Source: Squalus acanthias (Eukaryota). From it: a stretch of 64,000 nucleotides of DNA. The stretch's first letter is position 1. Every line of letters starts with the position of its first letter. The notes under the pieces were generated by a model. That model was not told the DNA's origin and did no database searches. It saw only the letters and a list, made by a program, of their open reading frames with translations. Shown here in pieces: positions 3,349-43,012 of the stretch. The DNA is taken from the NCBI GenBank assembly GCA_030390025.1, contig CM059430.1, positions 75,268,001 to 75,332,000 on the forward strand. The letters run 5' to 3'. The translations under genes were made by a program, and so were the position numbers.

Positions 3349-3596
3349 GTCTGTCGCTCCGAGTGATCAATTGGTTCAGAATGTTGGCGAGTGCTGTACT
3401 TCAGTGCCTCTCTGTTCTGGGGATCATGTTCACCGGTACCTGTTGTTTCTATACCTTGCTTTCTAGCTAAAACGTGGAGTTTCTTAACTTCCATTTGATA
3501 CAACATGTTTTATTGTCCTTTGCACACATTGCCTGACTCGCGCTTTTTCTCCTCTAATATTCTCATTAATTCAGTTTTGATTTTCTTTTCTGACAG

Positions 3597-3917
3597 ACTC
3601 CTGCGAAGCTTCGGTCAAAGTGACTCAGCTCCCTGAAAGCGCGAACATAAACACGGGTACAAGCGTTTCCTTTCATTGTTCGATTCCGTTCTTTCAGGAC
3701 GGACCACGGGTGAAGGTGTACTGGTGGAAACAGGGTGATAATAAATATCTAAGCACAGGACCTGATGACAAAAAAGTAACTGGCTCCAAAACGAAATTCA
3801 GCGGCTTCCTTCAGATAATCAATTTGAGTGTACAAGACTCGGGAGTATATTATTGCACTGTCGCCCTTCGAGGCAGAATAGTTGGAAACGGAACTGGATC
3901 CAATTTAGCTGTCTGGG
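3597..3917 (+). CDS. Gene A exon: Ig V-set domain with germline-joined J-like G strand
   Basis: Acceptor ttttcttttctgacag|, phase 1. Encodes DSCEASVKVTQLPES..VSFHC..VYWWKQ..LQIINLSVQDSGVYYC..GNGTGSNLAVW. Donor G|gtaagt. Canonical Cys-Trp-Cys and DxGxYxC. Confidence 0.95.
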
Positions 3918-4891
3918 GTAAGTATTATTGAAGCGGCGAATGAGATCCATTGACTATTATTTCACACTGCGAAGCAATTTTCTATTGTGCTTTGCAGGAT
4001 TCACAATGCAACTTAAATTCCGGTCGTTTTATGTGTATATATTCAAATTGCACTGTTGACTGCTTCACGTTACATGCTAATTTGTATTACAATATTTCAG
4101 CAATATTAATCAAGAGAATCATTATCGGTTTCATCCAAAGTACACAGTAAGCATGTATACAGCAAGTATTTGAAGTTAAAATTGCAGTGTCCGTTAAGGA
4201 TGTGTATAATGGATGGGAGCGGGAATCCGCCACTGTATGCACCGATCTTACCCTATTTGATGGTTTATTTTTTTCTGCGTTGGTTACGGAGGGCTGGCTA
4301 TTTGTATTGGGATTCAGATTCGCACATTTATAATTTAATGGTCTATATCTTAAGAAAGCCAAAATGCTAACTGTTAATGTCCGCACTCTGTAGCTTGAAC
4401 CTCGGACCCCTTATTTTAATCATCATTGCAGCCTCCAGCAAATACGGTTTCACACGGACCTCCGTACCATAGCCCCTCTATCTTGGGTAAATTATACTTC
4501 CTCATCAGATGTTATGCTCAACGGTATGGAATTTGTCCGCAGCCGTACCGCAAAACAAGCGACAGTGAATCGGCAGCCCGATATACACCACACTCGATGT
4601 GCTTTCCCATTAGAAAAGAAAATCAGTCGAGCTGTAAAAAGGGTGGCCTATTCGCTGTCATCCGGTTTTCGTCCCGCGAAAGCAGTTTAAATTACCGCCG
4701 ATATAAAGTTGAAATGTATGAAGAAGACATTTACGATGTTGGTACCAATAGCGCACAGTGAATACCAGGCCCTCACTACCACCTCCACCCACAACGCCCA
4801 CGTTGTGCTGTTAGGAATGGGCTGAAAGAAAATGTTGTGTTGATAATCTTGAATAATGTCCAAGTAACGTTCTTTTCTTCCATTTTTCTAG

Positions 4892-5200
4892 TTCCGCCAA
4901 CTCCACTGAAAATTGTCTCTCAGGAACATAAAAAGGATTCACCTGCGTCTCTGACTGTACTGTGCACAACATCTCCCTTTTACCCGCAGAATATCAGCTT
5001 CACTTGGTATAAGGATGGAACCAAAATTACAACAAGGATAAATAACATTAATCAACACAACACTGATGGACTATATGAAGCTTCCAGCCGGTTGGAAGAG
5101 ACGCAGGCTGTCCAGACTGGGACCGTTTATACCTGCCTGGTGTCTCACATTACACTCAAAATTTCAGCAACGGCCACTCACATTGTCACGTACCCTACAG
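4892..5200 (+). CDS. Gene A exon: Ig C1-set domain
   Basis: Acceptor catttttctag|. Encodes PPTPLKI..LTVLCTTSPFYPQNISFTWYKDG..DGLYEASSRL..YTCLVSH. FYP, W, GxY and YxCxVxH are C1 signatures. Donor G|gtagga; 309 nt, phase 1-1. Confidence 0.95.
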
Positions 5201-5214
5201 GTAGGATTTCAGAT

Positions 5215-6645
5215 AGAATCTTTGAATCTTACAGCCAAGAAAGAGACCATTATGCCCGACGTGCCTTGGGAGGGTTCTTTGAAAGAGCTGTCCAATTTAA
5301 TCCCCCACACCAGCTTTTTCCCCATAACTCTGCAAATTAGTCCTCTTCCAGTATTTGTCCAATTGCCTTTTGAAAGTTCCTACGAAAACTGTTCCCACCA
5401 ACCTTTCTGTTAATGCTTTCTGAATCCTAACAACACTTCGTGAGAAATTAATTCCCCTCAATTCGCCTCTAGTTTTTAACCAATAATTTTAAATCTATGA
5501 CTGATTGTTCCTGACCCATTTTCCAGAGGAAACAGTTTCTCCCTCCTAGTTCCATCAAAATCTCTCATTTTTTTGAATTCCTCTATTACGTATCCCCTTA
5601 ATCTTCTCTGCTCCCTTGAGAATAATCCCACTTTCTCCAATCTCTCTGCATAGCTGCAGGCTCTCATCTCTGTTATCATCCTGGTAAACCTCCTCTGTAC
5701 CCTTTCCAAGAACTTGATATCCTTCCTAAATTGTGGTGCACAGGATTGGACACAGAACTCCAGCTGAGGACTAGCCAGTGATTTGTAAAGGTTTCGCATG
5801 ACTTCCTTGTTTTTCAATTCACTGCCTCTATTTACAAAGTTCATTATTCCATGTACTTAATTAGCCATCTTATCATCTTGCCCTTCCACCTGCAAAGATT
5901 TGTGAATATGCACCCCAGGTTCCCCTGCCACTGTAAGCCCCTCAAAATATTACTATTTCAATTACACTGCCTCTCCATTTTGTTTCACCCATGTGCACAC
6001 TTCACATGCCCGCGTTAAATTGATCCTGACATGTGTCTGCCCGTGTCACCACTCTATCTATGTCCTGCTGAAGTCTTCTACTATGCTCCTCACTATTTAC
6101 TACGTTGCCAAGTTTTCCATCTTCTGCAAACTTCGAAATTGTACTCGCTGTATCCAACTCCTAGTAATATAGGCATACCAAGTAAGGCATTGGTCCTAAT
6201 ATCTATCCATGGGGGTCCCCCAACACATAATTCTCGGCAGTCAGAAAAGGCATTCTTTCACCACTACACTCTGCCACCTTTCAATGAACCAATTACGTAC
6301 CCAGGATACCACCATCCCTAAAACCCTATGTGCTTCCACTTGCCGAATAAGTCTATTATGAGTTAACTTTTCTAACGTTTTTAAATCTTTTTAAATCTTT
6401 TTAAAGTCCATATATATTCTGAACGACCTTCATCAATCCTCTCTGTTATTTCGTCAAAGAACTCAATCTGGTTAATCAGACATGATATATCTTTAACAAA
6501 TCCATGTTGGCTGTCCCTTATTAAGCCTTGCTTCTCCCAGTGAGTTTTAATGTTGTCCTTACCGAGGGTCTCCAGTAATTTTCTAATTAACGTTAGATTA
6601 ACTAGACTGTAGTTAACTGGTTTATCTATCTCAATTATCGTGCAA
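5215..6645 (-). mobile_element. Degenerate CR1 LINE 3' half (RT), intronic
   Basis: Minus ORFs 5476..5844 (LERVQRRFTRMI..LFSREQRRLRG) and 6381..6668 (SQHGFVK..CLINQIEFFDEIT). Confidence 0.85.
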
Positions 6646-7326
6646 GTAAACGGTTTGCTGTGATCCATCCCCCTATCATTTGTTTACTTTTTCTCAGATA
6701 CAATTATCCGCGGCATTCTGCCAGGTATTGTGCTCCATGGTCTCTGCAACAGCTGTTCGACATCTTCTGCCACAATGGAAGTCACGGTCGTGGTGTGGAA
6801 CTGAAGTGTGGGACAGTATCCCGCAGTAACTCGCACCCTGTGGTTCCATGTCGCAACATGTCGGAGCTGGACCGCTAGCTCCTGCATACCTTAAATCGTG
6901 CTGTAATGTTCAGCAAGCTCTAAATTTAGCAACTTCAATTAGCCGACTTATAAAACAGTAAACTAAACATGATCGCACGGAAGCCAGTGGAAATAAAAAT
7001 GGGGAGAAATGTAAATCAATCTGCCGACTGGCTATCGCCCATTTTACAGTAACGCACGATGTAAGAATTACCCCCTGATATCCCAGTCTTATTTCAACAA
7101 GAAACAAGGAAACAATCACATTTGAGATTAAGACAGGTTAACTTAAAATAACGATTCTTTAAGCATGAAAAATTAACAAAGACCAACACTTATATTATGT
7201 TTCATAAAATTGTAACTTCTTAAAAGAAAATTAAAATATTTTAATGTTTCTGATCTTTTTGGTCATGGTCTTATTGAATTGAACAGTGTAGGGCTTCATA
7301 TTGATATATTTAATTAAAACTTGTAG

Positions 7327-7437
7327 GTGGTGAGATCATCCATTACTTGCTGATTTCTGCAAGTGCAGGGGGCGGGCTGGTAGTCTTGCTGCTGGCTCTC
7401 ATCATTGGGAAGCAATGTGTCTCAAAGGAAAACATAG
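7327..7437 (+). CDS. Gene A exon: transmembrane segment
   Basis: ttgtag|..|gtaaga, 111 nt, phase 1-1. Encodes GGEIIHYLLISASAGGGLVVLLLALIIGKQCVSKENI, homologous to gene B TM exon (YLLI..GG..L.II.GK). Confidence 0.9.
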
Positions 7438-8069
7438 GTAAGAAATAAATTAGACTTTTTACTAAAGTAAGATCAACGTTCAAACAGAGTGTGAGCGAGA
7501 ACTTCCTGTTATATGTCGAGAGAAAGTTAGTTGATTGCAACTGAACGGTTCAAAGAACAGTTACTCTGTCTCACAGGAACAGGGGCGGTTGCTGAACGTA
7601 ACATTGTATCCTGGGTTTTAAGCTGTATGGGACGCTATACAGTCACCCCTATCTGCTTCATTTACACAAATTGCAGCACCTGATGTATTGGATATTGGTT
7701 TCATCACTACCGCTGTAGTGGTAGATTCGAATTTCTAAAATGTTTTGGAATTTTCCGAGGGCCCACAGCCACCGGCGGACTGGCACTCCGCTTTATTGAA
7801 AAATATTGTTCACTGTGTTCGAGTTTAAGCCCATTCCGGACAATGAACCTAGAATTGTGGGTAGTGCCCCCGTGATTTTCCAATCAGTATACCGTCGCGT
7901 GCAATGCCTCGCCGGCAACTGAAAATGTAATTGTCAAAAATAAGTCGGAAACCAAGCAATACGTTAAAATGTGATAGCTAGATCATGTTCTACTTTAAAT
8001 TGAATCTACCGAAGTTTCTTTCCAGGCTGAGTAAATGCCTCATTTTAAAGTCTTGAACTTCATTACCAG

Positions 8070-8113
8070 GAGAACAGAACGATGGCGAAAGATCCGACTA
8101 TCGCGAACAGCCG
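8070..8113 (+). CDS. Gene A exon: short cytoplasmic exon
   Basis: cattaccag|..|gtatgt, 44 nt, phase 1-0. Encodes GEQNDGERSDYREQP. Gene B has a 44-nt exon of the same phase at 28946-28989. Confidence 0.75.
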
Positions 8114-8414
8114 GTATGTGTGCATGATTCATTTTAATGTAACTCAGGTGTAAAAATATACATAACAGTTATAATCTATTTAAAGCAATCATATTTCACG
8201 TTATAATCTATTGCTCTAAAGATTCATAGAAAAATAGCGCAGAGTGAATTCAGCACTTATGCAGCACACACATGGAAACGATCTTCGTCAGTAGGTCAGA
8301 GGCAGCTGAATTGTAACTGTCATCTGTTGATTGTGAATAAACATATTATTTAAATTTACCATCAACTTTAATTAATAGTGAATAACTGCTTTTGCTTCCT
8401 GGATACAGCGGACA

Positions 8415-8805
8415 GTATGTTGGCGGCAGTCCATAAAGCTGTGCCGAATAACTAACTCTGGACTTAATCTAGTGTACGTGAGTTCAAATCCTATCATTGT
8501 AGCTGGAGATTTTGAATTCAGTTTTTTTAAAACCTGTAAATAAAAAATGTTAGCTGCAGAAGTGACCATGAAGCTGTGGGATTGTCTTAAAACCACAACT
8601 GGTTCACTAACGCCCGTCAGGGAATGAAACCTGCCATTCCTACCCGGTCTGCACTGTATGTGACTCCAGTCTACACCAAGGTGGTTGAATCTTAAATGCC
8701 TCCTGAAGGCTCCTCTGAAGGCCAGCACTACCACTTTCTGAGGCAAACCAGGGATGGGCAAAAAAGCCGGCCTTGCCCGCGATGCCCACATCTCTAGAAT
8801 TAATA
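8415..8805 (+). mobile_element. tRNA-derived SINE with LINE-derived 3' tail
   Basis: B-box-like gagttcaaatcc (~8480). The 3' tail cactaccactttct..ggcaa..gccggccttgcc..cccacatc matches the 3' end of the LINE at 50990-51680. Confidence 0.7.
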
Positions 8806-9420
8806 TAAAACCAAGCACAATGATACAGGCTGGCGGTGCCAGTTTAATGATTTGTTGTTCCCGCGCCTGCCCAGAGCACAGAAACTGAATTTTGGGTGAA
8901 TTTGCGGAAATGTTAAGAACACAACGAGGCAGGTGACGATCAATCGGCATTCCCTTCAGTCGCCTCGTTCTCCCGTCATATTATCTAACTGAATTTACTA
9001 CACCTCTAATGTCAACGCCCAACCTCCACCTCCTTGGGCGGAATTTGCTGCTTCACCGCACAGGCCGTGAGACCAAGCAAGCATGGATAAACTTATCGGA
9101 AGATTGAGGGTTATTTGCCCGCCATCTACCACATATTGAAATGAATAGACAAAAACGAGTTGGCATTAACTATAGATTTTCCAATATATATATCGCCTGT
9201 TGCATGTGATCAACGATCCCGGGAAGGAACCCGAGTATTCCAGCCCATCAAGAGACTTATTCGAAACATATCTGATTTTGTCAGTGTATATGATTTTCCT
9301 GATATCTGTTCGACATTGGTTTTCCATTTGTATCCCTAGTTCTAATTCTTCTCCGTGATTGAGTCATCAGGGTTTAATTAACGTGAAAGAGAGATGGACA
9401 TTGATGTAGAAAGAATCATA

Positions 9421-9447
9421 AATATATATATATATATATATATATAG
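9421..9447. repeat. (TA)n microsatellite
   Basis: Direct reading. Confidence 0.9.
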
Positions 9448-10545
9448 ACATATATTATACATAGTTATAGATAAAGAAATAGATATTATGACATTGTAGA
9501 TGAATTGAAAGCTGAACATAAAATTCTAGTCCTGGAGATCAATGAGAAGCTTTAATAATATCTCTTGTTCCATGTTCTGATCCTTGATTCCAGAATTCTA
9601 TTTGCTGTTTACTTGTCTTAACAGCGAAAGTGAGCTGACTACTGTTAACCCCAGACCCCTTTCTGTCTCCCTGTGCTAATTCAATTCGAACCATTGTATA
9701 ACAATGACACATATTTCCCTATTATGTCTAAAGCTCGATTTTATAATGACTCTAAATGATTTTATTATGTTTTGCTGCAACGAAAGTGTAACTTCAACTA
9801 TGGAAACCGTGCCAGATTGAGGTTATTTTAACGAGACGACTCCTATCAATGGACTTCAGGGATGAACTTTGATCCCTTATTGTTCTTTATTTTCCTGACC
9901 TGTAAATTTCGCGTGATTTCCGTAACTTCGGCGGGATGCCAGTGGAAGTTCCAGACAAACGAGGTATAGGACGCTTTCAGCCTATTACAACGTTCCTATG
10001 GGGCTTCTGGTGGTCATCCAGCGAAGTGAGATCAGGAGACTGGTTGTAGATCCGCGGATTTGAGGGGGTTGATTTTAGTATTTAGCGTCTGAGCGTTAAG
10101 CAATGCATGGCGGAGCGCAGAAAGGGAAATCTTGTGGGGAGGATCGCTCGTCCCGAGGGAATTTTTTGCATTCGTTTCAATGGTAGGAAACTGCACGGGT
10201 TCTGTTGCCAGCAGCAGCTCCGCAAAATTTTCTAATCCATGCTCAGCCCTGACGATGCCTCAGGTCCAGGGGGTAAAGAGGAAAGCTCCTTACACCCTAC
10301 TCAAATTATCGAATATTTGTGATAATGCGACTGATTCCGCCTGCTGGGCACTGACGGCGCAGGCACGGAGCACAAACAAGGAGGTTGTGGCAGCCGTGTT
10401 TGATATTCCACCCATTCTTTTAATGGATGGACCTTGGACCTGCGGTTTTCGGGCCTGCTCACATCGTTCTGCGCAGGGAGCGCCCAAACGTGGTATCTGT
10501 CCTAAGAGCATAACAAGATATATTTTTACCGTTCCTTCCATGCAG

Positions 10546-10644
10546 GGAGCAGCCGATGTGATGGCGCCTTATGCCGCACTAGATCTGACCAAATCCCGGA
10601 AAGATCCAAGACCAACGCATAAAGAGAGGACAGTGTATGCCCAG
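10546..10644 (+). CDS. Gene A exon: cytoplasmic, tyrosine motifs APYAAL and TVYAQ
   Basis: ttccttccatgcag|..CAG|gtttgg, 99 nt, phase 0-0. Encodes GAADVMAPYAALDLTKSRKDPRPTHKERTVYAQ. Confidence 0.85.
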
Positions 10645-10857
10645 GTTTGGCTGGGGAGCAGAACAAAGAGACACAGATTACCTGCAATTAACGGGCATGC
10701 GGGGTAGTGTAAGAAATACCTTGATAGTACTTTAGTAATCTTTTATATTTAATGCTAATTCTGCGAGGATCCAGCTATTCCAAGGAATATGCTAAACATT
10801 ATTTTGTAAATAACTACAATATCGAAGTAATGATATTTCCAAACATTGATTTCACAG

Positions 10858-11073
10858 ACCAAGCAAAGGGCGCCGGATAATAAGCTGACCTACGCTGCTG
10901 TAGACATGACAGGCTCCAAGAAAACAACAAAGCCTAATTTTAAGGATAAGAGCACGGAGTATGCTCAGCTACAGATGAAAAATCAAACAGCAGACGTTAT
11001 TTACACGGAAAGAAAAGCCAAGTTATATTGGCGTCCAATGCAGAACCCGTTTTATTTGTGTATAACTAACTAG
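10858..11073 (+). CDS. Gene A last coding exon: ITIM LTYAAV and ITSM-like TEYAQL
   Basis: gatttcacag|, phase 0. Encodes TKQRAPDNKLTYAAVDMTGSKKTTKPNFKDKSTEYAQLQMKNQTADVIY..CITN*. Confidence 0.85.
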   Translation, partial: TKQRAPDNKLTYAAVDMTGSKKTTKPNFKDKSTEYAQLQMKNQTADVIYTERKAKLYWRPMQNPFYLCITN

Positions 11074-22449: not shown

Positions 22450-22660
22450 NNNNNNNNNNNNNNNNNNNNNNNNNNNNNNNNNNNNNNNNNNNNNNNNNNN
22501 NNNNNNNNNNNNNNNNNNNNNNNNNNNNNNNNNNNNNNNNNNNNNNNNNNNNNNNNNNNNNNNNNNNNNNNNNNNNNNNNNNNNNNNNNNNNNNNNNNNN
22601 NNNNNNNNNNNNNNNNNNNNNNNNNNNNNNNNNNNNNNNNNNNNNNNNNNNNNNNNNNNN
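22450..22660. other. Assembly gap
   Basis: Run of N. Confidence 1.
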
Positions 22661-23164: not shown

Positions 23165-24241
23165 GGAAACAATAACAAGGCAATGAGGTAAGTGAAGTTT
23201 CTATCTGTGTTACATTCAATCTCTTCCTGTAGTTCTTCGGTGGCGAGGTTGCACAGACTTCGTCAGCAGCCTCCCTGTAAACTGCCTGAACTGCCCTCCT
23301 CTGTGGCGTCCTAACCTGAAGCTTCAACAGTCGATTACTTCTCGCTTTGACAGGAGCTGCCGTGCGTATCAGATTAAGCCCGACTAGAAAGAAATGGATT
23401 CAGAAGCGGAGTTGGTTTGGTGGGGCGGGTGGAAGTTCCGCCTTGAAGGAACTCCGACCCGAAAACTAGAATCTATCCACTGATGACCCTCTTTACCGGG
23501 CCACAGCCTTTGGAAATCTGCGGCATCATCGTATTCCTGATCCGATCCCCTCAGCAAAGGATGCTCAAGACCGAGGAAGGAAAAACAGACGGGTTAGGGG
23601 CCAAGTTATTTGCAGCACATTCAGCTAAAACTATCTTCTTTCTCAAACTTTCCGAACTTCTGTAATTGGCAATGCAACCCTCCCAGCAGCCTTCCCACAC
23701 CCCTTTCTTTATGTAACTTCTATATAATATAAACAGTTTCTGCCTGATCAGGGGGTTTCATCAGAGTGTTGTGAACCTGTCACCTCCTTAATGTTATGCC
23801 ATTGAGATAAACCACGTATAGGCCGACCAATGAGGCTTTGGTAAACTGCAGATTGCAGATCCTGTTTAGATGAGGTGTTCACGCACATTAACTGACATTT
23901 ACGTTCACAGCTCGCCTCTTAAAATAGATTATCGGAAACTGTTTTAGGCACGCGATTTGACATCTCGTGAAATCACAAATCTGATCGGATTATCTACAAA
24001 CTGATATTTCCAAACCATCCGAGCCGCAGTTCAGTGGCAGAGCAACTTCCATTGAACAATGTTTGTGTGTCACTACATATGGGCGCTTGGGGTTATTTAC
24101 AACGGTATTTTCCGTTATAATCGACTACTTTTCTTTCTTGCTCGTTTTTTAAATTTATTTATCTCTCCTACATCGATATATGTATATCTTATCTATCTTT
24201 TATCTCTATTTTGAAAATAATGTGTAATAAATATTTTACAG

Positions 24242-24553
24242 TTGCTCCCGCTACCGTGTTCCAAACCCCTGAAAGCACCAGTGTGATGGCAGGTGTAGAC
24301 ATTACGTTCCATTGCATGACGAGCTCTCTCCAGGGTAATGCAGATGTAAATGTCCATTGGTGGAGACTTGGTGACAATCACTTTATACAACCAGGTTCTG
24401 ACGGCAGAAAACTATTCTTTCCTTTGAAAGACGGAGAGACATCCTTCCAGATCCTAAGTGTCCGTGTCCCAGACTCCGGGCACTATTACTGCGGAGTGAG
24501 ATACACAGGAAACACAATCGTAAATGGAACGGGATCGAAACTTGTTGTGCACG
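24242..24553 (+). CDS. Gene B exon: Ig V-set domain with germline-joined J-like G strand
   Basis: atattttacag|, phase 1. Encodes APATVFQTPES..ITFHC..VHWWRLG..FQILSVRVPDSGHYYC..IVNGTGSKLVVH. Donor G|gtaagc. Confidence 0.95.
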
Positions 24554-24709
24554 GTAAGCGACCTTGGAGAGAGTTGCGGCCGCTCCAATTGTACAACGGT
24601 GTATATATAGTTTCATTCGTTTTTTGATTATTTAGTGAATTGACCTCTACTGCTAGTTTATGGGAGATGATCAGGGAACATTATTTAAAATAAGCCCCAA
24701 AACCATATC

Positions 24710-24711
<2 letters not shown>

Positions 24712-24747
<36 letters not shown>
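24712..24747. repeat. (TA)n microsatellite
   Basis: Direct reading. Confidence 0.9.
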
Positions 24748-24749
<2 letters not shown>

Positions 24750-25429
24750 TTTAATATCTCTTGACTCAGGGGCAATATACAGAAGAAGGATCTAAAGCCA
24801 AAGGTTCTGAAGCCAAAGGCGCAGTATGTGGTATGTTGTAGCATTAAGGACCTTGATTGACTGGCTGTGGATAGAGAAGAAATTAGTTTGTACAAGATAT
24901 TGGTAGGACCACACTTTGAATCCTGTGTGCAAATCCATCACAAAACTACAATGGAAATACGCAAGCAGTGGACGCAGTATAGAACCGGAACAGCCAAATT
25001 GGAAACTCGCTAAGGAACCTGAGTCGCCATGAGACGTTCAGGAGCCTGGGCTTGTTTACTTTGAGGCGCAGAAGGCGCATTGGAAATTTTATTCAAGATT
25101 ATTAATATAATAGATAGTTAGCTCCAGATTGCTACAAAAACAGCAAGAAGTTGACAGCTTTTCAGAGAGAATGTCGGCAGGAAATGTAGATTTAATTGCT
25201 TTCCGCTGAAGGTAATTAACATGTGAAAGGACTCTCCAGTGGAGAGATTACGTGGAAAAACTTAAAGGAGAACTGGATCGAATTTGAGGGAGTGGAAGAC
25301 TCAGTGCTATTTGATTTTGGGAATTGACAGATGGACTACAGAGTATTTTCGGATGCTGCATTTACTGTGTAGTTATTCCTATGCATTCTAAAACTTTTGT
25401 CACAATGAAGTCCACTGCCTCTAATTTTA

Positions 25430-26060
25430 TAGAACCTTATAGCACAGAAAGAGACCATTCGTCCCATTTTGCCTGTGCCAGCTCTTTGAAAGTGCTATCT
25501 AATTAGTCCTATTCCCCCGCTCTTTCCCCAAAGCCCTGCAAAACTTTCTCTTTCAAATATATATCGAAATTCCCATTTGAAAGTTACGACTGAATCTGCA
25601 TCCACCAGCCTTTCAGGAAGGGCAATCCAAATCATAGAAACTCGCTGTGTAAAAATCGATTCTCCACATCTCGCATCTGGTCCTTTTGCCAATTGTCTTC
25701 AATCTGTGCGCTCCTGCTAGTGGAAACAGTTTATGTGTATATAGTATATCAAAGCCCCTCATCATATTGCACAGCTAAATACATCTCTGCTTAACTTTCC
25801 CTACTCTAAGCTGAACAATACCAGTTTCTCCTGTCTCTCCATGCAAATGAAGTCCCACGTCCCTGCTAGTATTCTCGTAAATCTATTCTGCATCCTCTCC
25901 ATGGCCTTGACATCCTTCCTAAAGAATTGTGCCCAGAATGGACACAATACTGCAGATGAGGCCTAACCAGTGATGTATATACTTTTAACAAAACATCCTT
26001 GCTTTTGTACTCTATGTCTCTGTTTTAAAGCCATGGATATCATATGCTTGTTCTGCCACC
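25430..26060 (-). mobile_element. CR1 LINE 3' fragment
   Basis: Tail tagaaccttatagcacagaaagagaccattcg and minus ORF FTQRVSMIWIALPERLVDA. Confidence 0.75.
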
Positions 26061-26609
26061 TTCAAATATTATGGTGTTCAATTACACAACTGATCTGTAT
26101 GTAAAATCCTACCGGTTTGAACTCAAGTCACTGAGCTGTAACTGTAAAAATACTGACACTAATTACTGCAAGGTATGACATACGATTTCGCTGTCCGGCG
26201 AGAGATTTGTACATACATCGTTTCATATTTAGAGAACGGGGACGGAGCGTATACAATCTTTGAACATTTGAATAAACTGCTGGTCAGTTTCAATTTGGTC
26301 TAAGGGACCCTTTGATCATTTTTGCAAGCTAGATTTGATACTAACTGGGAATTATACTGCATGAGTGTCGAACCCAATCTGTGGAATCTCACGCGCTTCT
26401 CCGTATTGGGATCGCTTCTCTGGACGGTAATAATTCCCCCCTTTGTTCCAATTTACAAATCTTAAAGCAATTTGTTCGAAATAAGTTCTGCCTATTTATT
26501 TAAACCTGCCGAAAAGGAAAACAGAGCAAAAAGCTGCTGAGTGAAATTATAAAAATAATTATTTGCCTGGACTAAGCGGAAAGCGGCAACAGCCTGAATA
26601 TCTAATACG

Positions 26610-26795
26610 ATAGCAAAATACTGCGGATGCTGGAAATCCAAAATAACAACAGAAAAGGCTGAAAAAACTCAGCAGGCCAGGCAGCATCCGTGGAGAGAGA
26701 AACAGAAGGACTTCGACCTGAAACTTTAACTCTATTTCTCTCTCCACGGATGCTGCCTGACCTGCTGAGTTTTTCCAGCGTTTTCTGTTGTTAGC
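26610..26795. repeat. Fold-back repeat derived from Penelope-like terminal sequence
   Basis: ctcagcagg.caggcagcatccgtggagagagaaa ... tttctctctccacggatgctgcctgacctgctgag are inverted arms; same unit as the ends of 16790-18550. Confidence 0.75.
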
Positions 26796-27019
26796 CTGAA
26801 TGTCTAGTCGCACTGAATTGCTTTCTCCTCTTCTTGAAAAACGCTTATACATCATCCGCATGTTAGTCTAGAATGTTTTGGGAAGAATCTTATTTCGAAT
26901 TGTTAAATAAGCAAAATGCGAATTGGAATCATCGTATCATATTCAGGAAGATTGGACTCCAAACACTAATCAAATAGCAGAGTCTATTCAATCAGTGTAT
27001 TCTTTACTCTATTCAAAAG

Positions 27020-27328
27020 CTTCCCCAGAACCCGTGAGACTGGTCCCCAAAGTATCCGGAACCAACTCATCTGCTCTAACACTTGTGTGTGAAACGGCCG
27101 AGTTCTACCCGGAGGCTGTCACCTTCACTTGGTATAAAAATGACACCAACATTGTGACTGGGATCAACACCATTAAAAAGCTGAATTCGGAGGGAATGTG
27201 TGAAGCTTCCAGCATATTGCAAACGACACAGCCAGCCCAGAGCGGGGCTGTATATATCTGTGTGGTGTCTCACCTCACACTGCAGAGTCCAGCCGTGGCT
27301 GTTTATTTTGATTCCAGTTCTAACCCAG
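27020..27328 (+). CDS. Gene B exon: Ig C1-set domain
   Basis: attcaaaag|..|gtaaga, 309 nt (same length as gene A). Encodes ASPEPV..LTLVCETAEFYPEAVTFTWYKN..EGMCEASSIL..YICVVSH. Confidence 0.95.
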
Positions 27329-27803
27329 GTAAGATGTTGACATTTGTATAATACTGGCAGCCACTGAGCACTTTAAATCAGCTTTATTTGCTCTCTATCC
27401 GTTTTGTTTCAGAGATGCAATTAATTTTACAGAATGTTCTTTCAAACATTGCTTCTATTTGCTGATTTGTGAAACGGATACAAAAGGCAAGCTTCTCCCA
27501 TCCGAGAAATGGAGTGTAATCTATACAAATTATAATGATCAACTGAATTACACTAATCTTCACCAGATTCAATTGCTCGCCATTTAACAGGGAGAGAAAA
27601 TTCGTAGAATATCTTTTTCTCATTTATTTAATATTTTCCGTTAGTAAGAAGCTGCCGATCCAGACCAGTTCCTGTGATCGCTGTCCCACTTTCCGTGAGA
27701 TGCCACCCGAGAATGAATAATACGGCTGTAAAATGCGCTATAGTCTTCTTAGCTAAAAAGTTCATTATTGTGGTGTAAAAGAAAATTCAAATTAATTTTT
27801 AAT

Positions 27804-27972
27804 NNNNNNNNNNNNNNNNNNNNNNNNNNNNNNNNNNNNNNNNNNNNNNNNNNNNNNNNNNNNNNNNNNNNNNNNNNNNNNNNNNNNNNNNNNNNNNNNN
27901 NNNNNNNNNNNNNNNNNNNNNNNNNNNNNNNNNNNNNNNNNNNNNNNNNNNNNNNNNNNNNNNNNNNNNNNN
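27804..27972. other. Assembly gap
   Basis: Run of N. Confidence 1.
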
Positions 27973-27974
27973 GT

Positions 27975-28150
27975 ATCGATCTATCGTCTATCTATCTATC
28001 TGTCTATCTATCTATCTCTGTCTATCTCTCTATCTATCTATCTATTCTCTCTCTATCTATCTATCTCTCTATCTCTATTGCTCTCTCTCTCTCTATGTAT
28101 AGATCTATCTATCTATCTGTCTATCTATCTATCTGTCTATCTATCTGTCT
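27975..28150. repeat. (TCTA)n/(TC)n compound microsatellite
   Basis: Direct reading. Confidence 0.9.
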
Positions 28151-28367
28151 TTATGTATAAATATAGATTTTAACCAGTTTGCACAGTTAACATTCTCAGT
28201 CCTCGGCTCCGCTGTGGCGAAACTCAAAATGTAAATGGGAGAACTAACATATGTTCAACAGACTGGTTGTATAACACTGCCGACAAAGAAGATCTGGTCA
28301 TTGATTATTACTATTATTAGTCAAAGCAATATTAGGATGATAATTTGTATTGTGATTATGATTTTAG

Positions 28368-28481
28368 GCAATAGACTCCCATCCCTTTACCTACTGATTG
28401 CTGGATGCACAGGGGGTGCAATTATATTTCTAGCCATCATCATCTTGATTGGGAAGAGTTACCAACTCATTAACTGTAAAG
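28368..28481 (+). CDS. Gene B exon: transmembrane segment (GC donor)
   Basis: gattttag|, encodes GNRLPSLYLLIAGCTGGAIIFLAIIILIGKSYQLINCK. The donor position homologous to gene A is AAAG|gcaagg; read-through gives GKEPPM* at 28501. Confidence 0.85.
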
Positions 28482-28945
28482 GCAAGGAGCCACCTATGTA
28501 GTTTCACTGTGATAGATTTGTAATAAAAAAAGGGATCTACAGGACGCCGTGAAAAGGAAGGAACGTTATATCTGGTCCAGGAATGGAATTATGCTGATAT
28601 GTTGAAATGTTATAATTGGTTACATAGTCTGAAAATAAATGTCAAAGCATCATTCAAATTAATTAAAGTAAATGATTAATGAGTACCGAATATTTGCATT
28701 TTTCGGTGGTGTTTTGCTGTTTTGAATCAGTGATTCCCTGTGTTATGGGCCGAAGGCATTTCAGGAACGTTAACTCTAGATTGCTCAACAAAAGGGGCGA
28801 GAGGGGAGTGTTGCGATTACATTTTCAAAACTTGTCATGAGCTGTGATCCTTAAGGCGCTTTTGGCTGAGACTAAGTCGGATTTCCTTGTTCTCGGTTGT
28901 TCACTTCTTGGTGTCTGGCCAAAGTTAAATGTTGTATTTCACTAG

Positions 28946-28989
28946 GCGCACGCGGAAACGAAGAGGGTCCTCGCCACTTCGAAGAGCGA
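28946..28989 (+). CDS. Gene B exon: short cytoplasmic exon
   Basis: gtatttcactag|..|gtgcgt, 44 nt, phase 1-0. Encodes GARGNEEGPRHFEER; same size and phase as gene A 8070-8113. Confidence 0.65.
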
Positions 28990-29054
28990 GTGCGTTTCTC
29001 TACTACATTTTTGAAAATGTTGGAAGCGTAAAATAATGCAACGCTATACTCAAT

Positions 29055-29797
29055 GGCCCAAAAATTAGTGCCGCTACGCGAGAGTACGCACTGTGTACTC
29101 TCGCGTATTCTGTCTCCAATTGCCGGTTTTCTGCATGCACTGCGCATGCGCTGAAAACCGGCACTTGGGGAATTCAAAAGGGGGCGGTTCCTAGGTGAAC
29201 CGCGTGCGCGCTACAGGCTGCGCGCACGCAGTGCACTTAGTGCTTTGAACGCGCAGGTAAGCATGGAACATTTTAGACATAAAGAAAGGAGGCGTAAGAC
29301 CCTCTTTTAACAAGGTAAGTAGTTAATTAAGTATTATTTTGAATTGTTTTTAACAGGTATATCTTTTTTAGAGACTTTAAAGACAGGTAAGTTTATTTTT
29401 ATAACTTTTAAAAAGATTTTAAATTTTTTCAAAAATTTAATTTTTTGTTTAAAGTGGATAATTTATTTAACGATACTTATTTTATTAATGTGATGGTTTT
29501 TAAAAAAAATTAATTGAGGTTTAGCTGTTCTTTTGGGGGGTATAGTATTCATAGCTTTCACAGCCCTTGCTGTGAAAACTATGAATGAAAGATGGTGTGC
29601 TGCCATTTGCTCTAACTGAACCACGTCATCCCACAGCTCGCACGAATTAAATGCGTCTGTGGGATACGCACACACTGCACAGCTGCTGTCTAGAAACTCA
29701 AGTTCGTGCGAGCTCAGAAGGAAAAGGCAGGCGCGCAGTGAGAAAACGCGGGGAAGCCTTACCCCCGCAGGAAGGCTCTGTCTTTAATTTCTGGGCC
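29055..29797. mobile_element. PIF/Harbinger-type MITE
   Basis: TIRs ggcccaaaaatta / taatttctgggcc, 3-bp TSD AAT/AAT. Internal hairpin gccggttttc..gcgcatgcgc..gaaaaccggc is shared with 42251-43012. Confidence 0.85.
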
Positions 29798-29904
29798 AAT
29801 ATATATAATGATGTGAAGTACACGGTTATTTTTACGTGTACATTGATAAATATTTATATGCACGAGGGGCCACTGTACGAAATAAACAAATCCCCTTCAG
29901 TCCC

Positions 29905-30680
29905 ATTCCCTGCTGCAAACATCTCCAGTCAAGTACAGAACGGGTGGATGCCGACCTAAGCTCCATCTGCACTGCCCCATCAAACACTCCCAAGTGTAGT
30001 GCAGTTGGGTTAGATAGAGAGTAAAGCTCCCTCTACACGTTCCCAACAAACACTCGCTGGACAGGTACAGCACGGGTAAGATAAAACATGAATCTCCCTC
30101 TAAGCTGTCCCGTCAAACACTCCAAGGGTAGTTACAGAATGGTTTAGATATATTAAAGCTCCCTCTACACTCCCAGGTGTGGAAAAGCAAGACTACATAA
30201 ATAGTAAAGCTCACTCTGCACTGTCACATCAAACACGCCCAGGGCAGGTACAGCACGGGATAGATACAGAGTAAAGCTTCATTTACCCTGTCCCAGCAAA
30301 ACTTCCAGGGCAGGGAGAGCACGGGTTAGATACAGAGTAAAGCACCCTCTACACTGTCCCATCAAACACTCCCAGGGTAGGTACAGCATGCGTTAGAAAC
30401 AAAGTAAATCGCCCTCTATACTGTCACATAAAACATTCCCAGGTCTAGTGCAGTTAGGTTACATAGAGAGTAAAGCACCATCTAAACTGCCCCTTCAAAC
30501 ACTTCCATGGCCTAGATACAGAGTCAAGCTCCCTGAACACTGACCATCAAACACCTCGAGGGGAGTTACAGCACTGGTTAGATATATAGTAGACCTCCGT
30601 CGACACCGGTCCATTTAACATTCACTGTGACAGTGCAGTACATTTCGATACAAAGTGATATTCCATTACTCTGTTCCAAT
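29905..30680. repeat. ~67-bp tandem minisatellite, about 11 diverged copies
   Basis: Unit approximately tagatacagagtaaagctccctctacactgtcccatcaaacactcccagggcaggtacagcacgggt. Confidence 0.9.
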
Positions 30681-30954
30681 GAATTGCCTGAAGCTCCTCC
30701 TTATGAAAAACACTGCAATTGGACCATGCGATTTCTCCCCACTCTCCCGCCGACTAATCACTGTCTTCTCTGAGTGAGATTCCTTATTCATCAATGTGGA
30801 TTGTTAATTAATTCTACATGTAGTGCTTTAAGGCAGAACACAAGCAGTTAGATTGAGAACGACCAAGTAATGGAGAATAATCCATCAGTACAGGCTACAC
30901 TCCAATCCCAGATCCCAAAGCACGAAGTCACTGCGTCAGATGGTCCTCATGTTC

Positions 30955-31640
30955 TCATAAGAATATAAAAAATAGGATAAGGAATAGGCCATTAGGCACC
31001 TCGAGGCTGCTCCATCATTCAATAAATTCAAGGCTGATCTTATACATCAACGCCAGCCTAGCCCCATATCCCTTAATTCCCCAAAGAGTCCAAAAATCTA
31101 TCTATCTCAGCCTTGAATATACACATCGACTAAATATTTACAACCCTCTGGAGTAGAGAACTCCATAGATACACAACCTTCTGATTGAATAAATTCCTCC
31201 TCATCTCAGTCTTAAATGGCCGACCCCTTATCATGAGACTATGACCCTAAGTTCTAGACGCTCCAGCCAGTGGAAGCATCCTCGCTGCATCTACCCTGTC
31301 AAGTCCTCTAAGAATTGCATACGTTTGAATGAGATCACCTCTCATTCTGCTAAACTACAGACAAAAGAGCCCCATTCTGCTGAATCTCTCCTCATAGGAC
31401 AAACCTCAAATGGAAAGAATCAATCTAGTGAACCACGGTTGCAACTCCTTTAAGGCAAGTATATCCTCCTTTAAGTAATGAGATCAAAACTGTACACAGT
31501 ACCCCAGGTGTGGCCTTACTATAGCCCTGTATAATTGCAGCAAGACTTCCTTAATCTTATATTCCAGCTGCCTTGCAATAAAGGCTAACATACTGTCAGC
31601 CGTCCTAATTGCGAGCTATACCTACTTTTTAAGTTTCTGT
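30955..31640 (-). mobile_element. CR1 LINE 3' fragment
   Basis: Tail cataagaatata..aggaataggccatt; body matches other CR1 3' ends in the window. Confidence 0.8.
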
Positions 31641-31831
31641 ATCGATGGAATAATATCGATAAAACACCTCTTTGTATGTTATTGACCGTGTCTGAAGCAC
31701 ACATTATGAGCACAGTTCAGTTGGTGACTGAATGTTAAAGAAAATTATTCAGCTTTTCATTTCTGTTTCATGCATCACTTTGCTAACTAATCAAGCTAAT
31801 GAGCTTACCGTTAAACGCTTCGATTTTACAG

Positions 31832-31903
31832 ACCATTGGACGGACATTTGATAATAGGCAAAGACGGAAACCTAAAGATAACAAAAAGCATAAGAAGATG
31901 TAG
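31832..31903 (+). CDS. Gene B last coding exon (truncated, basic tail without Tyr motifs)
   Basis: cgattttacag|, phase 0. Encodes TIGRTFDNRQRRKPKDNKKHKKM*. The start aligns with gene A last exon (T..R..DN); the frame continues RQNNEY up to the CR1 junction at 31921. Confidence 0.6.
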   Translation, partial: TIGRTFDNRQRRKPKDNKKHKKM

Positions 31904-31921
31904 AGGCAAAATAATGAATAT

Positions 31922-34900
31922 AGAAACATAGAAGATAGGAGCAGGAGTAGGCCATTCGGCCCCTCGAGCCTTTTCCGCCATTTAATGAGATGATGGCTGA
32001 TCATCCAAATTCATTACCCTCTCCCTGCTTTCTCCCCATATCCCTTGATCCCTTAAGCGTTAAGAAATATATCTAACTCCTTCTTGAATATATTTAATGA
32101 ATTGGCCTCAACTGCCTTGTGTGGTAGAGAATTCCACAGGTTCACCACTCTCTGGGTGAAGAAATTCCTCCTCATTTCAGTCCTAAATGGCTTACCCCAT
32201 ACCCTTAGACTGTGACCCTTGGTTCTGGACTCCCCGCCATCGGGAACATCCTTCCTGCATCTAGTCTGTCCAGTCCTGTTAGAATTTTATAAGTTTCAAT
32301 GAGATCCCCTCTCATTTTTCTAAACAATAGCGAATATAAACCTAATCTACCCAATCGCTCCTCATAAGTCATTCCTGCCATGCCAGGTATCAGTCTAGTG
32401 AATCTTCTCTGCACTCTCTCCATGGCAAAAACATCCTTCCTCCGATAAGGTGACCAAACTGCACACAATACACAAGGTATGGTCTCACCAAGGCCTGTAC
32501 AACGGATTGCTCCTGTACTCGAATCCTCTCGCTATGAAGGCCGACATACCATTTGCCTTCTTAACTGCCTGCTGCACTTGCATGCTTACCTTCAGCGACT
32601 GGTGCACGAGGACAGCCAGGTCTCGTTGCACTTCCCCTTTTCCCAATCTGTTTCCGTTCAGATAATAACCTGTCTTCCTGTTTTTGCCACCAAAGTGATA
32701 ACCTCACATTTATCCACATTATACTGCATTTGCCATGCATCTGCCCAATCACCCAACCTGTCCAAATCATACTGGAGTTTCTCTGCATCCTCCTCACAGC
32801 ACCAACGCCCACCCAGCTTTGTGTCGTTTGCAAACTTGGAGATATTACATCTAGTTCCCTCGTCTAGATCTTGTATATATATTGTGAATAGCTGGTGTCC
32901 TCGCACCGATCCCTGCGGTAACCCACTGGTCACTGCCTGCCACTCGGAAAAAGACGCGTTTATTCCAACTCTTTGCTTCCTGTCTGCCAACCAGTTCTCT
33001 ATCCAAGACAGTAATTTACCCCCAAAATCGTGTGCTTTAACTTTGCACGCTAATCTCTTATGCGGGACCTTATCGAAAGCCTTCTGAAAGTCCAAATACA
33101 CCACATCCACTGGTTCTCCCTTATCTATGCTACCAGTTACATCCTCAAAAAATTCCAGTAGATTAGTCAAGCATGATTTACCTTTTGTAAATCCATGTTG
33201 ACTTTGTCCGATCCTGTCACTGTTTTTCCAAGTGCTCTGCTATTACATCTTTTAGAATGGACACTGGCATTTTCCCCACTACCGATGTCAGAATTACCGG
33301 TCTATAATTCCCCGTTTTCTCTCTACCACCTTTTTTAAATATTGGGGTTACAATAGCTATCCTGCAATCCATCGGAACTGTTCCAGAGTGAATAGAATTT
33401 TGGAAAATGACCAGCAACGCATCTACTATTTCTAGGGCCACTTCCTTAAGTACCCAAGGATGTACATTATCAGGCCCTGGGGATTTATCGGCATTCAATC
33501 CCATCAATTACCTAACACCATTTCCCTACAAATACTGATTTCATTCAATTCCTCCTTCTCAATAGACCCTATGGTCCCCGACATCTAGGGAGGTTATTTG
33601 TGTTCTCCTTTGTGAAGACAGAACCAAAGTATTTATTTAATTGGTCTGCTATTTCTTTGTTCCCGATTATAAAATCCCCTGATTCTGACTGCAAGGGACC
33701 AACACTTGAAGTAATGAATCTTTTTCTCTTCACACATCTATTGAAGCTTTTACAGTCAGTTTTTATGTTCCCTGCAAGCTTACTCTTACAATCTATTTTC
33801 CCCCTCTTAATTAATCCCTTTGTCCTCCTTTGCTGAATCCTAAACTGCTCCCAATCCTCAGGTTTGCTGCTTTTTCTGGCCAAATTATATGTTCTCTCCT
33901 TCGATTTTATGCTCTCCTTAATTTCCCTTGTTATCCACGGTTGAGTCACCTTATTGTTTTAGTTTTATGCCAATCAGGGATGAACAAATTATGCAGTTCA
34001 TCCATGCGCTCTTTAAATGTTTGCCTTTGCCTATCCACCGTCAATCCTTTAAGTAACGTTCCCCAATCCATCCTAGACAACTCGTGCTTCATACCATCGT
34101 AGATTCCTTTATTTAAATTCAGGACCCTAGTCTCTGAGTCAACTACCTCAATCTCCATGTTAATGAAGAATTCTAGCATATTATGATCTCTCCTCCCAAG
34201 GGGCCTCAAACAACAAGATTGCTAATTAATCCTTTCTCATTACATAATACCCAGTCTAAGTTGGCCTGATCTCTAGTTGGTTCCTCGACATATTGATCCA
34301 GGAAACCATCTCGCATTCACTCTTGGAATTCCTCCTCCACAGCATTGTTACTAATTTTGTTAGCCCAATCTAAATGTAGATTAAAGTAACCCATGATAAC
34401 TGCTGTGCCCTCATTGCACGCATCTCTAATTTCCCGTTTAATGCCATCCCCAGCCTCAGCATTATTGTTTGGTGGTCTGTATACAACTCCCACTAACGTT
34501 TTCTGCCCCTTGGTAATTCTCAGCTCTGCCCATACAGATTCCACATCACCAGAGCGAATATCCTTCCTTACTACTGTGTTAATCTCTTCTTTTACCATCA
34601 ATGCTATCCCACCTACTTTCCTTTTTTCCTGTCCTTCCTGAATATTGAATACCGCTGGATGTTGAAATCCCAGGCTTGGTCATCCTGGAGCCATGTCTCC
34701 ATAATCCCAATTATATCATGTCCGTTTACATCTATTTGCGCAGCTAATTCATCCACCTTATTACGAATATTCCTCACATTAAGTCACAAAGCCTTCAGGC
34801 TTGCTTTTTTAACCCTCTTTGTCCTTTTAGAATTATTATTTACTGTGGCCCTGTTTTATTTACATCCTTGATTTCTCTGAATCCACTTTTGCTTTTCTCC

Positions 34901-34960
34901 TTCCTGTCTTTTGTTTCTATCCTAGCTTCCCTTTCCTCTGTCTCCCTGCACAGGTTCCCA
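31922..34960 (-). mobile_element. 5'-truncated CR1 LINE (EN + RT, frameshifted) inserted into the last exon of gene B
   Basis: Minus ORFs 34317..34601 (VGVVYRPP, endonuclease), 33569..33949, 33217..33507, 32658..33170 (LDFQKAFDKVPH..PQGS..FANDTK), 32205..32468. Tail agaaacatagaagataggagcagg. Confidence 0.95.
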
Positions 34961-34999
34961 ACTTACGCACATCTAACAGAACAAACAGCTCAATTATGA
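34961..34999 (+). pseudogene. Stranded 3' end of gene B last exon (TYAHLTEQTAQL*)
   Basis: Begins at the first base after the CR1, is in frame with the pre-insertion sequence, and aligns to gene A EYAQLQMKNQTA. Confidence 0.6.
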
Positions 35000-35439
35000 T
35001 AATATTTGATGTAACATTTGACTGGACCGTGCTGGTCATATCTAGTATGTTAAATATATATGAAGCCCAACCAGACAGCTCTATTTTATTCGCAAATTAA
35101 AATAGAAACTGGTAGAACACACACTAGGATGTGATGTCAATACGCCTGTGAGGCGTTCCATCCAAGACTTCAAACTAGCTTTCTTTTTCAGATGCAGATC
35201 TTACTAACGTTTATTTTTCATTAGTTGTAATATTTCTGGTGTGTTTATATCAACATTAAGACGTCCTTCTATGACTTCCTGTTTAATGAGACAACTATTA
35301 AAGTGTAAACTGCAGTGAATGCAAGCGGATAGAGTCTTATTTAAGAGATATCCAGTTAATGTCAAAGTCAATGTATTGCTCCTTGCTAATAATATTTGAG
35401 TTAGTCATCAGTGAATAGATTATTAAATCATCGTGTGGT

Positions 35440-41055: not shown

Positions 41056-42250
41056 TTGCTTTATGGAGCTGGCCTATGAATTGGAATGGTATATTCTCAT
41101 CCTGCAAAGTTATGTTCTCAAGCAAAATATAGCCTCTGTGCGTAAAGGTATGGTACGTAAATAGATCGCATGATGAGTCATCAGTGACCATGTTTCCTGC
41201 AGCTTTCTCCGAATGATAAAGTCATAGAATTTCCTAGAATTACATAAGGACATAACATAAGAACATGAGAAATAGCAGCAGGAGTAGGCCATTTGGCCCC
41301 TTGAATTTGCTGCGCTATTCAATAATATCATGGCTGATGGTTTACCTCAACTGCACTTTCCTGCACTATCGCCATGTCCCTTGATACCCTTAATATCGAA
41401 AAATGTATCGATCTCAGTCTTGAATATATTCAACGGCTGAGCGTCCACAGGACCCGGGGTAGAAAATTCCAAAGATTCACCACACTCTCAGTGAAGAAAT
41501 TTCTCCTCGTCTCAGTCGTAAATAGCTGACCCATTGTTCTGAGACTGTAACCCCTGCTTCTAGACTCCACAGCCAAGGGAAACATCCTTCCCTGCATCTA
41601 CCCTGTCAATTTCTGTAAAAATGCATATGTTTCAATGAGATCACCTCTCATTCGTCTAAACTCTAGAGAATATAGGCCTGGTCCACTCAATCTCTCCTCA
41701 TATAATAATCCCCCCATCGCAGGAATAAATCTGGTGAACCTTTGTCCCACTCCTTCTATGCCAAATATATCCCTCCTTAGATAAGGAGAACAAAACTATG
41801 CAAGCTGTAAGCATGGTCCAAACGGATGCGGAATGGAAGTTGGAATGTTGAAAATGCTTAGAGAGGCCCTATATACTCCAGGGCCCTATATAATTGCAGT
41901 AAGACGACTTTATTCTTATACTCAAAACCCTCTTGTTATAAAGGCCAACATACCATATGCTTTCCTAATTGCTTGCTGTACCTGCATGTTAACTTTCAGT
42001 GGTTCGTGAACAAGGGCACGCAGGTCCCTCTGAACATCAACATATCCCAATCTCTCACAATTTAAAAAATACTCTACTTTTCTATTTTCCTACCAAAATG
42101 GATAACTTCACATTTCTCCACATTATATTCAATTTGCCATGTCATTGCCCACTCACATAGCGTGTCTATATCACCTTGACGCCTCTTTTCCTCCTCCTCA
42201 CAAATTAGATTCACACCCAGATTTGTATCATCAGCAAACTTGTATAAATT

Positions 42251-43012
42251 GGGCCAGAAATTCGGATCTCCAAGGGTGAATACGTGCAGTGTACTCACCC
42301 GTAGACCCAATGAAAGTGCCGGTTTCGCACATGCACTGCGCATGCGCTGGAAACCGGAACTTCCATTCCCTTGAAGGAAGGGGTTCGGAGGTCAAACGCG
42401 TGCGCTGGAGAGACAGTGCGTCGACCTGGAACTTCCGTTTTTTTTCTGGTTTCTCCGTGCGGGTAAGTGCCTAGCAGGTGCGCGTTGAAAACGCAGGTGC
42501 AAGGCCTGCTTTTAACAAGGTAAGTGGTGAATTAAGTAAAATTTAAACATTTTTTCCACAGGTTTATCTTTTTTAAATACTTTAAAGAAATGTAAGTTTA
42601 TTTTTAGCCCCGTTAAAAACTGTAATTAATGTTTTAAAAAATTAAAATTTTTGTTTAAAATAGTTACTTTATGTAATTAATAGTTATTTTAAAAATGTTA
42701 TTTTTTAAAAAATTTATTTGAAGTTTTAATTAGTTTTTGGGGCCGATCTCTATTCATAGATTTGACAGGTCTTCCTGTCAAATCTATGAATTGAGATCCC
42801 CTGCTCCGATTAGCTCTCCGTGGCCCACGTGATCCCAGGGGATGCTTCGAACTCACTGCGCTCCTGGGATACACAAGCACTGCACTCCAGCATCTGGAGG
42901 AGGCCCAGGATCGGAATCCCACCCAGGCCCACTGCACAACGGCAAGCGCGCTAGGTAAGTGCAGTTCGGGGGCTTGTACCCGAGGGAAGCCTCCGACCCA
43001 AATTTCTGGCCC
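42251..43012. mobile_element. PIF/Harbinger-type MITE
   Basis: TIRs gggccagaaattcgg / ccaaatttctggccc, 3-bp TSD ATT/CTT. Same family as 29055-29797. Confidence 0.85.

Follow-up and report, generated by a model that had tools for sequence, protein, structure and literature searches.

A V-C1 Receptor Gene of Squalus acanthias That Probably Lost Its Tyrosine Motifs Long before a CR1 Element Landed behind It

Introduction

According to the SIRP literature, the tyrosines of immunoreceptor tyrosine-based inhibitory motifs (ITIMs) recruit SHP-1/2, and charged transmembrane segments (TMs) recruit adaptors carrying the corresponding activation motifs, ITAMs (PMC12975943). SIRP-gamma (CD172g) combines an uncharged TM with a short tail free of such motifs; its gene, SIRPG, is called primate-specific in the literature (PMC12975943, PMC3533184, PMC12678352), one of which reports that it enhances T-cell proliferation (PMC12678352). 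Elasmobranchs possess UrIg and UrIg2, non-rearranging genes of the VJ-C1 type (PMC12227049, PMC10751288). Here we compare with these systems gene B, one of two same-strand immunoglobulin superfamily genes (A and B) lying amid many repeats in a stretch of 64,000 nucleotides (nt) of Squalus acanthias (GenBank assembly GCA_030390025.1, contig CM059430.1, positions 75,268,001 to 75,332,000), called the window below.

The exon order leader-V-C1-TM-cytoplasmic is common to both genes. The original prediction for this locus took them for paired receptors and proposed that gene B, once inhibitory, had been converted into a non-signalling decoy or adhesion form by a stop codon (TAG) and a CR1 insertion in its last exon, or was in early decay. 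Our analysis leads to a different history. Gene B is probably an intact V-C1 receptor of an old elasmobranch lineage, with a tail lacking both ITIMs and switch motifs (ITSMs); the loss of these motifs would pre-date the split of sharks and rays, and TAG and CR1 would be later lesions.

Results and Discussion

Clade of Gene B and Age of the Motif Loss

Searches returned a multigene family in sharks, rays and chimaera, the automatic names of which are inconsistent. A tree was calculated on the V and C1 domains of 40 chosen homologues plus genes A and B; an earlier tree, without 11 of 43 proteins, recovered the same two clades. Gene B falls into a nine-row clade (support 100/99) together with eight RefSeq models from seven shark and ray species (Heptranchias, Heterodontus with two models, Mustelus, Scyliorhinus, Pristis, Leucoraja and Amblyraja), and is orthologous to the Heptranchias model XP_067853498.1 (79% identity over V and C1, 75% for the V exon). 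Gene A belongs to a separate nine-row clade (support 100/100) and is orthologous to the Heterodontus ITIM group (XP_067906080.1, 78%); its motifs LTYAAV and TEYAQL are conserved in its orthologues. The two genes share only 37% identity in V and 43% in C1, and a sister relationship between them was rejected in the tree test (p-AU 0.006). Judged by these comparisons, gene A is neither the source nor the sister of gene B; the two are distant paralogues, and gene B is no recent copy. Since the ectodomains are divergent and sisterhood is rejected, the pair lies outside the definition of paired receptors given in PMC3533184, and this part of the original prediction has to be given up. The resemblance of exon sizes on which it drew was borne out by the coordinates, with C1 exons of 309 nt and short cytoplasmic exons of 44 nt in both genes. 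The TM of gene B is uncharged as claimed, but this is not specific to gene B, as the TM of gene A is uncharged as well.

In the typical last exon of the family, an ITIM is found at codon 12 and, further on, a TxYxxL motif at about codon 35. None of the eight orthologous models in the clade of gene B has a YxxL/V/I motif in its tail (counted from 40 residues past C1). The tails of seven reach about 20 residues past the TM at most; the eighth, from Heptranchias, contains the product of the 44-nt exon and runs on into the last exon, where it stops at codon 12, the position of the ITIM tyrosine in gene A and other family members. In gene B itself, the first nine codons of the last exon align with the family, codons 10-15 are unlike an ITIM, and the match is already lost at the codon of the ITIM tyrosine, 12 codons before the TAG. 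Most frameshift-aware alignments place a shift at or beside codon 12, and a local frameshift-aware profile alignment retained the first nine codons only. Because the nearest long-tailed relatives of the clade (P0030 and P0063) retain both motifs, the direction of change is loss. Taken together, the sequences suggest that the inhibitory motifs of this lineage were likely lost before sharks and rays split. Sharks and rays separated roughly 250-300 million years ago.

Alternatively, the tyrosine tail could have been kept past the main elasmobranch splits and then been lost several times by different lesions. The models do differ in their end points (codon 12, codon 24 or just behind the TM exon), and a recognisable start of the last exon persists in gene B and in Heptranchias. 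However, several independent events would be needed with no survivor among eight models, and the Heptranchias stop and the break in gene B fall on the same codon. We consider such parallel losses rather improbable.

The Stop Codon and the CR1 Insertion

The stop codon was confirmed at 31901-31903, and a minus-strand CR1 is indeed present at the last exon; it extends from about 31920 to 34959, its left junction being ambiguous by a few bases because no target-site duplication is evident. This long interspersed nuclear element (LINE) is decayed, with seven frameshifts and one stop over 641 aligned codons in comparison to the intact copy at 47620-49626. It begins 16 nt past the stop of gene B and thus removes no coding sequence in the present frame.

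Contigs from four of 21 listed sequencing runs were placed on positions 28200-35400 (likeness 84). The placement is dominated by CR1 and minisatellite contigs, and the joints listed are those of repeats only. An 847-nt contig of organism D (run X11, record 15) matches 34960-35396 from its letter 64 onward with 52 differences (about 88% identity); the 63 letters ahead of this match do not run on into the CR1. As this match begins at 34960, the right end of the element can be fixed at 34959/34960, and the contig indicates that a version free of CR1 exists in a close relative. If the CR1 is absent there, it is younger than the motif-less state shared with skates. It is therefore likely that the element landed later, in an already non-coding 3′ untranslated region (UTR), and was not the cause of the motif loss.

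Directly behind the CR1, the flank reads TYAHL, which the original prediction took for a relic of the second gene A motif. This stretch is displaced by no more than about 10 nt from where that motif would be expected, and 127,996 six-frame codons contain YAx[LIV] 31 times, a chance rate of about 0.5% per 21 nt. Joined across the CR1, the exon also scores above random acceptor-anchored DNA, which was as good in 5 of 400 trials and in 5, 9 and 8 of 300 in further comparisons. A global alignment of the joined exon to the last exon of gene A was reached by one of 1000 shuffles, the acceptor being included in it. However, when the piece behind the CR1 was exchanged for random DNA of the window, at least the same score was obtained in 39 of 400 cases with the family profile and in 91, 167 and 32 of 300 cases with the sister-clade, P0030 and gene A profiles, respectively. 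Shuffles of the CR1-free join matched its score in 19-35 of 300 cases, neither CR1 flank aligned significantly with the last exon of gene A in a local DNA comparison (117 and 495 of 1000 shuffles), and 23 possible joins across the CR1 put YAHL in frame. TYAHL as a relic of the second tyrosine motif is plausible, although the statistics do not establish its match to the motif as more than chance. The equal spacing of 14 residues between the lysines and the tyrosine, also claimed, depends on the frame, as most frameshift-aware alignments place one or two shifts in the joined exon. The poor state of the putative relic would be more easily reconciled with a long time out of use than with two recent lesions.

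These data bear on the proposal that gene B had been an ITIM receptor until TAG and CR1 hit it in this lineage. The position of YAHL and the score of the joined exon are in its favour, and in one alignment the sister clade has the Gln of its MQKQ where gene B has the TAG. Against it, all eight orthologous models lack the motifs, the first ITIM is ruined by changes ahead of the TAG, the remnant of the last exon of gene B has decayed too far for detection by the tail hidden Markov model (HMM), and the CR1, being downstream of the stop, can have cost the gene no codons beyond those already lost to the stop. Such a recent conversion, and with it TAG and CR1 as the cause of the loss, is highly improbable.

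Integrity and Splicing of Gene B

In both genes, the V-set and C1-set domains exceed the Pfam cut-offs. Over the 781 nt of leader, V, C1 and TM, gene B shows no stop or frameshift compared to 3.3 expected at the CR1 rate (P about 0.04). Its end branch (0.082 compared to a median of 0.17) is the shortest shark branch of the clade.

Contigs from runs guessed to be of RNA type start to fit at 28366, two bases ahead of the TM acceptor, as a splice from C1 to TM would give. Such breaks were seen in records 17 and 26, and record 26 (run X9) has 730 letters upstream of the TM acceptor, compared to 667 predicted from the ATG. At the other end of the TM exon there is a GC splice donor, beyond which record 17 (run X7) extends by 9 nt to 28490 with two differences in 125; bin arithmetic suggests that a contig of run X10 continues about 50 nt past this donor, and pieces of run X9 stop at it. 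The three runs of presumed RNA type show no depth at 28986 or 35124, which counts neither for nor against the gene model. The Mustelus model XP_078066430.1 likewise runs on as GKEP at the corresponding point. Gene B likely has two short-tailed isoforms, one using the GC donor and the other reading through it. Contigs beyond the donor could also be explained by unspliced precursor. The short cytoplasmic exon is one of two 44-nt stop-free candidates between AG and GT in gene B, and its homology is confirmed by the match of its product to the Heptranchias model XP_067853498.1. As a side observation, run X7 (organism A) contains two versions of the TM exon, differing at 28388, 28389, 28408 and 28447, one of which shares differences with organisms C and D; either a divergent allele or another paralogue of the B type would account for them.

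The possibility that gene B is functional elsewhere and decaying in this species has to be considered here, since a C1 site that is Tyr in nine out of nine relatives has become Cys, read-through contigs accompany the GC donor, and two CR1 copies lie near the last exon. The open frames, the well-scoring Ig domains, the short branch, the lesion test and the splice-type contigs argue against it. With the ectodomain apparently intact, short-branched and spliced, decay is the less likely state, and we regard it as distinctly improbable; the early decay that had been predicted as the other outcome is disfavoured accordingly.

Favoured History and Mode of Action

The history we favour can be put together as follows. 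The ancestral last exon of the family bore both motifs at the codons given above. In the ancestor of the B lineage it would have been inactivated at the ITIM tyrosine, where the Heptranchias stop is still found, other models ending just past the TM exon. A small deletion at about codon 12 may then have shifted the frame in the lineage of gene B, giving a basic extension of 12 residues up to the TAG, and the CR1 would have inserted subsequently behind the stop, in the 3′ UTR. The protein may have been kept for its ectodomain, binding ligand without recruiting SHP-1/2 or ITAM adaptors, possibly as an adhesion molecule, co-receptor or competitor in the manner of SIRP-gamma.

Several observations weigh against this history. 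The models of the clade are automated RefSeq predictions and possibly cut short, and their differing end points allow independent losses. The state of the TAG in relatives is not visible in the aligned contigs. The contig of organism D does not display a join to 31919 and may stem from a paralogue. The lesion test suffers from bias, the gene having been chosen for its intact look; the RNA type of the runs is a guess, and the C1-TM junction lies outside the stretch on which contigs were placed. The Tyr-to-Cys change, the GC donor and a weak donor at 28990 are signs of relaxed constraint, and a gap of 169 N (27804-27972) inside the C1-TM intron could hide sequence. Finally, as SIRPG is reported to enhance T-cell proliferation (PMC12678352), a motif-less tail need not be signal-dead.

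Apart from a single juxtamembrane tyrosine (YQLI), three residues past the TM and unconserved in the clade, gene B has neither an ITIM nor a charged TM and hence likely works through its ectodomain, like SIRP-gamma. Downstream of gene B, the tail HMM finds no other tyrosine-motif exon in the window, its only hits being the two tail exons of gene A; a TM exon of the arginine type was not found in the window either. It is also conceivable that gene B is no decoy and signals through a partner, pairing with a family member that bears an ITIM or an arginine, or that its juxtamembrane cysteines serve acylation and partitioning. The joined VJ plus C1 layout resembles an antigen-receptor chain, UrIg2 as the closest solved relative is a dimer, and the clade repeatedly shows a small-residue motif in the TM and a juxtamembrane Cys; against this, a conserved hinge cysteine is missing from gene B. 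We hold such a partner-chain role to be unlikely, and it would be compatible with the favoured history, from which it differs only in the mode of action.

Other Features of the Window

The features of both genes and of the CR1 at the last exon are collected in Table 1.

Table 1: Positions of the features of genes A and B and of the adjacent CR1 in the window.
Feature	Position	Strand	Basis or remark
Gene A	3381..11073	+	leader 3381-3435, V 3597-3917, C1 4892-5200, TM 7327-7437, cytoplasmic 8070-8113
Gene A, extra tyrosine-bearing tail exon (APYAAL, TVYAQ)	about 10546..10644	+	match to Heterodontus XP_067906080.1; tail HMM score
Gene A, last exon with LTYAAV, TEYAQL, VIYTE	10858..11073	+	sequence
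Gene B, leader exon, 46 nt	24059..24104	+	like N-termini of P0005-P0009
Gene B, V exon, joined VJ type, GxG motif, open	24242..24553	+	Pfam V-set E 4e-8
Gene B, C1 exon, 309 nt, open	27020..27328	+	Pfam C1-set E 3e-11
Gene B, TM exon, uncharged TM, juxtamembrane Cys	28368..28481	+	GC donor at 28482
Gene B, alternative short tail, read-through beyond GC donor, end GKEPPM-stop	28482..28500	+	X7 record 17; Mustelus XP_078066430.1
Gene B, short cytoplasmic exon, 44 nt	28946..28989	+	product also in XP_067853498.1
Gene B, last coding exon, 23 codons + TAG	31832..31903	+	homologous start; ITIM position (codons 10-15) destroyed
Gene B, remnant of last exon behind the stop, 3′ UTR	31904..31919	+	sequence
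CR1 LINE, 5′-truncated, decayed	about 31920..34959	-	left end ambiguous by a few bases
Flank behind CR1 reading TYAHL, possible relic of second motif, non-coding	34960..34999	+	weak alignments

The extra tail exon of gene A, which the original prediction does not list, and the last exon of that gene are tandem relatives. In gene A, the acceptor that Heterodontus uses seems to be missing; the next AG (10545) is in frame.

Besides the copy at the last exon, a second and more decayed CR1 fragment (30940-31700, minus strand; nine stops over 202 aligned codons) lies in the last intron of gene B. The young copy at 47620-49626 on the plus strand is an ORF2 stretch open for 668 codons, and a transposase remnant, presumably Harbinger-like, adjoins it at 46301-47236. 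A degenerate minisatellite with a 66-bp unit (29938-30611) in an intron of gene B is very abundant in all four runs. Directly behind the 44-nt exon there is a repeat at about 29000-29800, and an element at 42250-43010, itself no CR1 and nested in a CR1 copy, resembles it by eye. In addition to the gap mentioned above, the assembly has a run of N at 22450-22660.

Comparison with Known Receptor Families

An old loss followed by an incidental insertion in the 3′ UTR would be an ordinary event in a CR1-rich shark genome; a transposon-driven conversion would have been a neat case. The comparative value of the locus is rather that a motif-less V-C1 lineage would be conserved across sharks and rays, in a cluster with inhibitory and likely activating forms. 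The design of inhibitory, activating and neutral receptors would then go back to early jawed vertebrates, and the family would provide a defined gene set for asking whether receptors of the SIRP type descend from non-rearranging VJ-C1 genes.

In the literature searched, no description of this V-C1 family was found; it may be covered by work on the NCR3 genes of sharks and the VJC1 genes of Xenopus. Its chondrichthyan RefSeq models bear the automatic names “SIRP-alpha-like”, “NCR3LG1-like”, “Ig lambda-like” and “tapasin-related-like”. NCR3LG1 (B7-H6) is the name given to three models in or near the clade of gene B, and no B7-H6 entry occurs among the 60 best PDB matches. The best PDB match of the family is UrIg2 (9DMX, E 1e-33); human SIRP-alpha (2WNG) is the second match other than antibodies (E 6e-25 with the profile, 3e-14 in another search). 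With UrIg and UrIg2, gene B shares the unsplit VJ exon and C1. UrIg2 has nine C1 domains and forms an Ig-like dimer, whereas in gene B a single C1 precedes the TM, as a single C1 is also found in gene A and in the orthologous models, and its relatives carry ITIM tails.

The present family resembles paired receptors (KIR, LILR, PILR and SIRP; PMC3533184) in that forms with ITIM or ITSM stand beside short forms with an arginine in the TM and neutral short forms. For genes A and B themselves, the ITIM-bearing member is present (gene A), but the ectodomains are not similar and an activating member with a charged TM is missing. At the level of the family, seven short-tailed relatives with an arginine at the start of the TM (P0042, P0046, P0050, P0064, P0099, P0115 and P0197) are candidate activating receptors. 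In Callorhinchus, P0035 (with ITIM) and P0046 share 222 of 233 residues and have opposite types of tail; they would either form a genuine pair or derive from one gene by alternative splicing.

A close parallel is SIRP-gamma. Like gene B, it combines a V and C1 ectodomain with a short motif-less tail and an uncharged TM and is clustered with ITIM-bearing relatives, and the end state foreseen in the original prediction, a receptor of this kind beside an ITIM receptor, therefore fits, the unconserved YQLI notwithstanding. They differ in that SIRP has a V plus two C1 domains, and in that the ectodomains of SIRP members are described as highly homologous, whereas gene B is about 40% identical to its ITIM neighbour. 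If SIRPG is primate-specific, the likeness would be convergent. It is possible, though we advance it tentatively, that an undescribed, SIRP-like family of non-rearranging VJ-C1 receptors of cartilaginous fish with a three-way split (inhibitory, activating and neutral) is represented here, in which gene B marks a neutral orthologous lineage retained from sharks to skates, an independent and far older parallel to SIRP-gamma with a fossil of its inhibitory exon in the 3′ UTR. By sequence, the trait of the SIRP family, with ITIM, charged-TM and motif-less members, recurs in full among the relatives of gene B, and the best reading is that gene B represents an old motif-less, SIRP-gamma-like member of a chondrichthyan SIRP-like V-C1 family with ITIM and TM-arginine forms.

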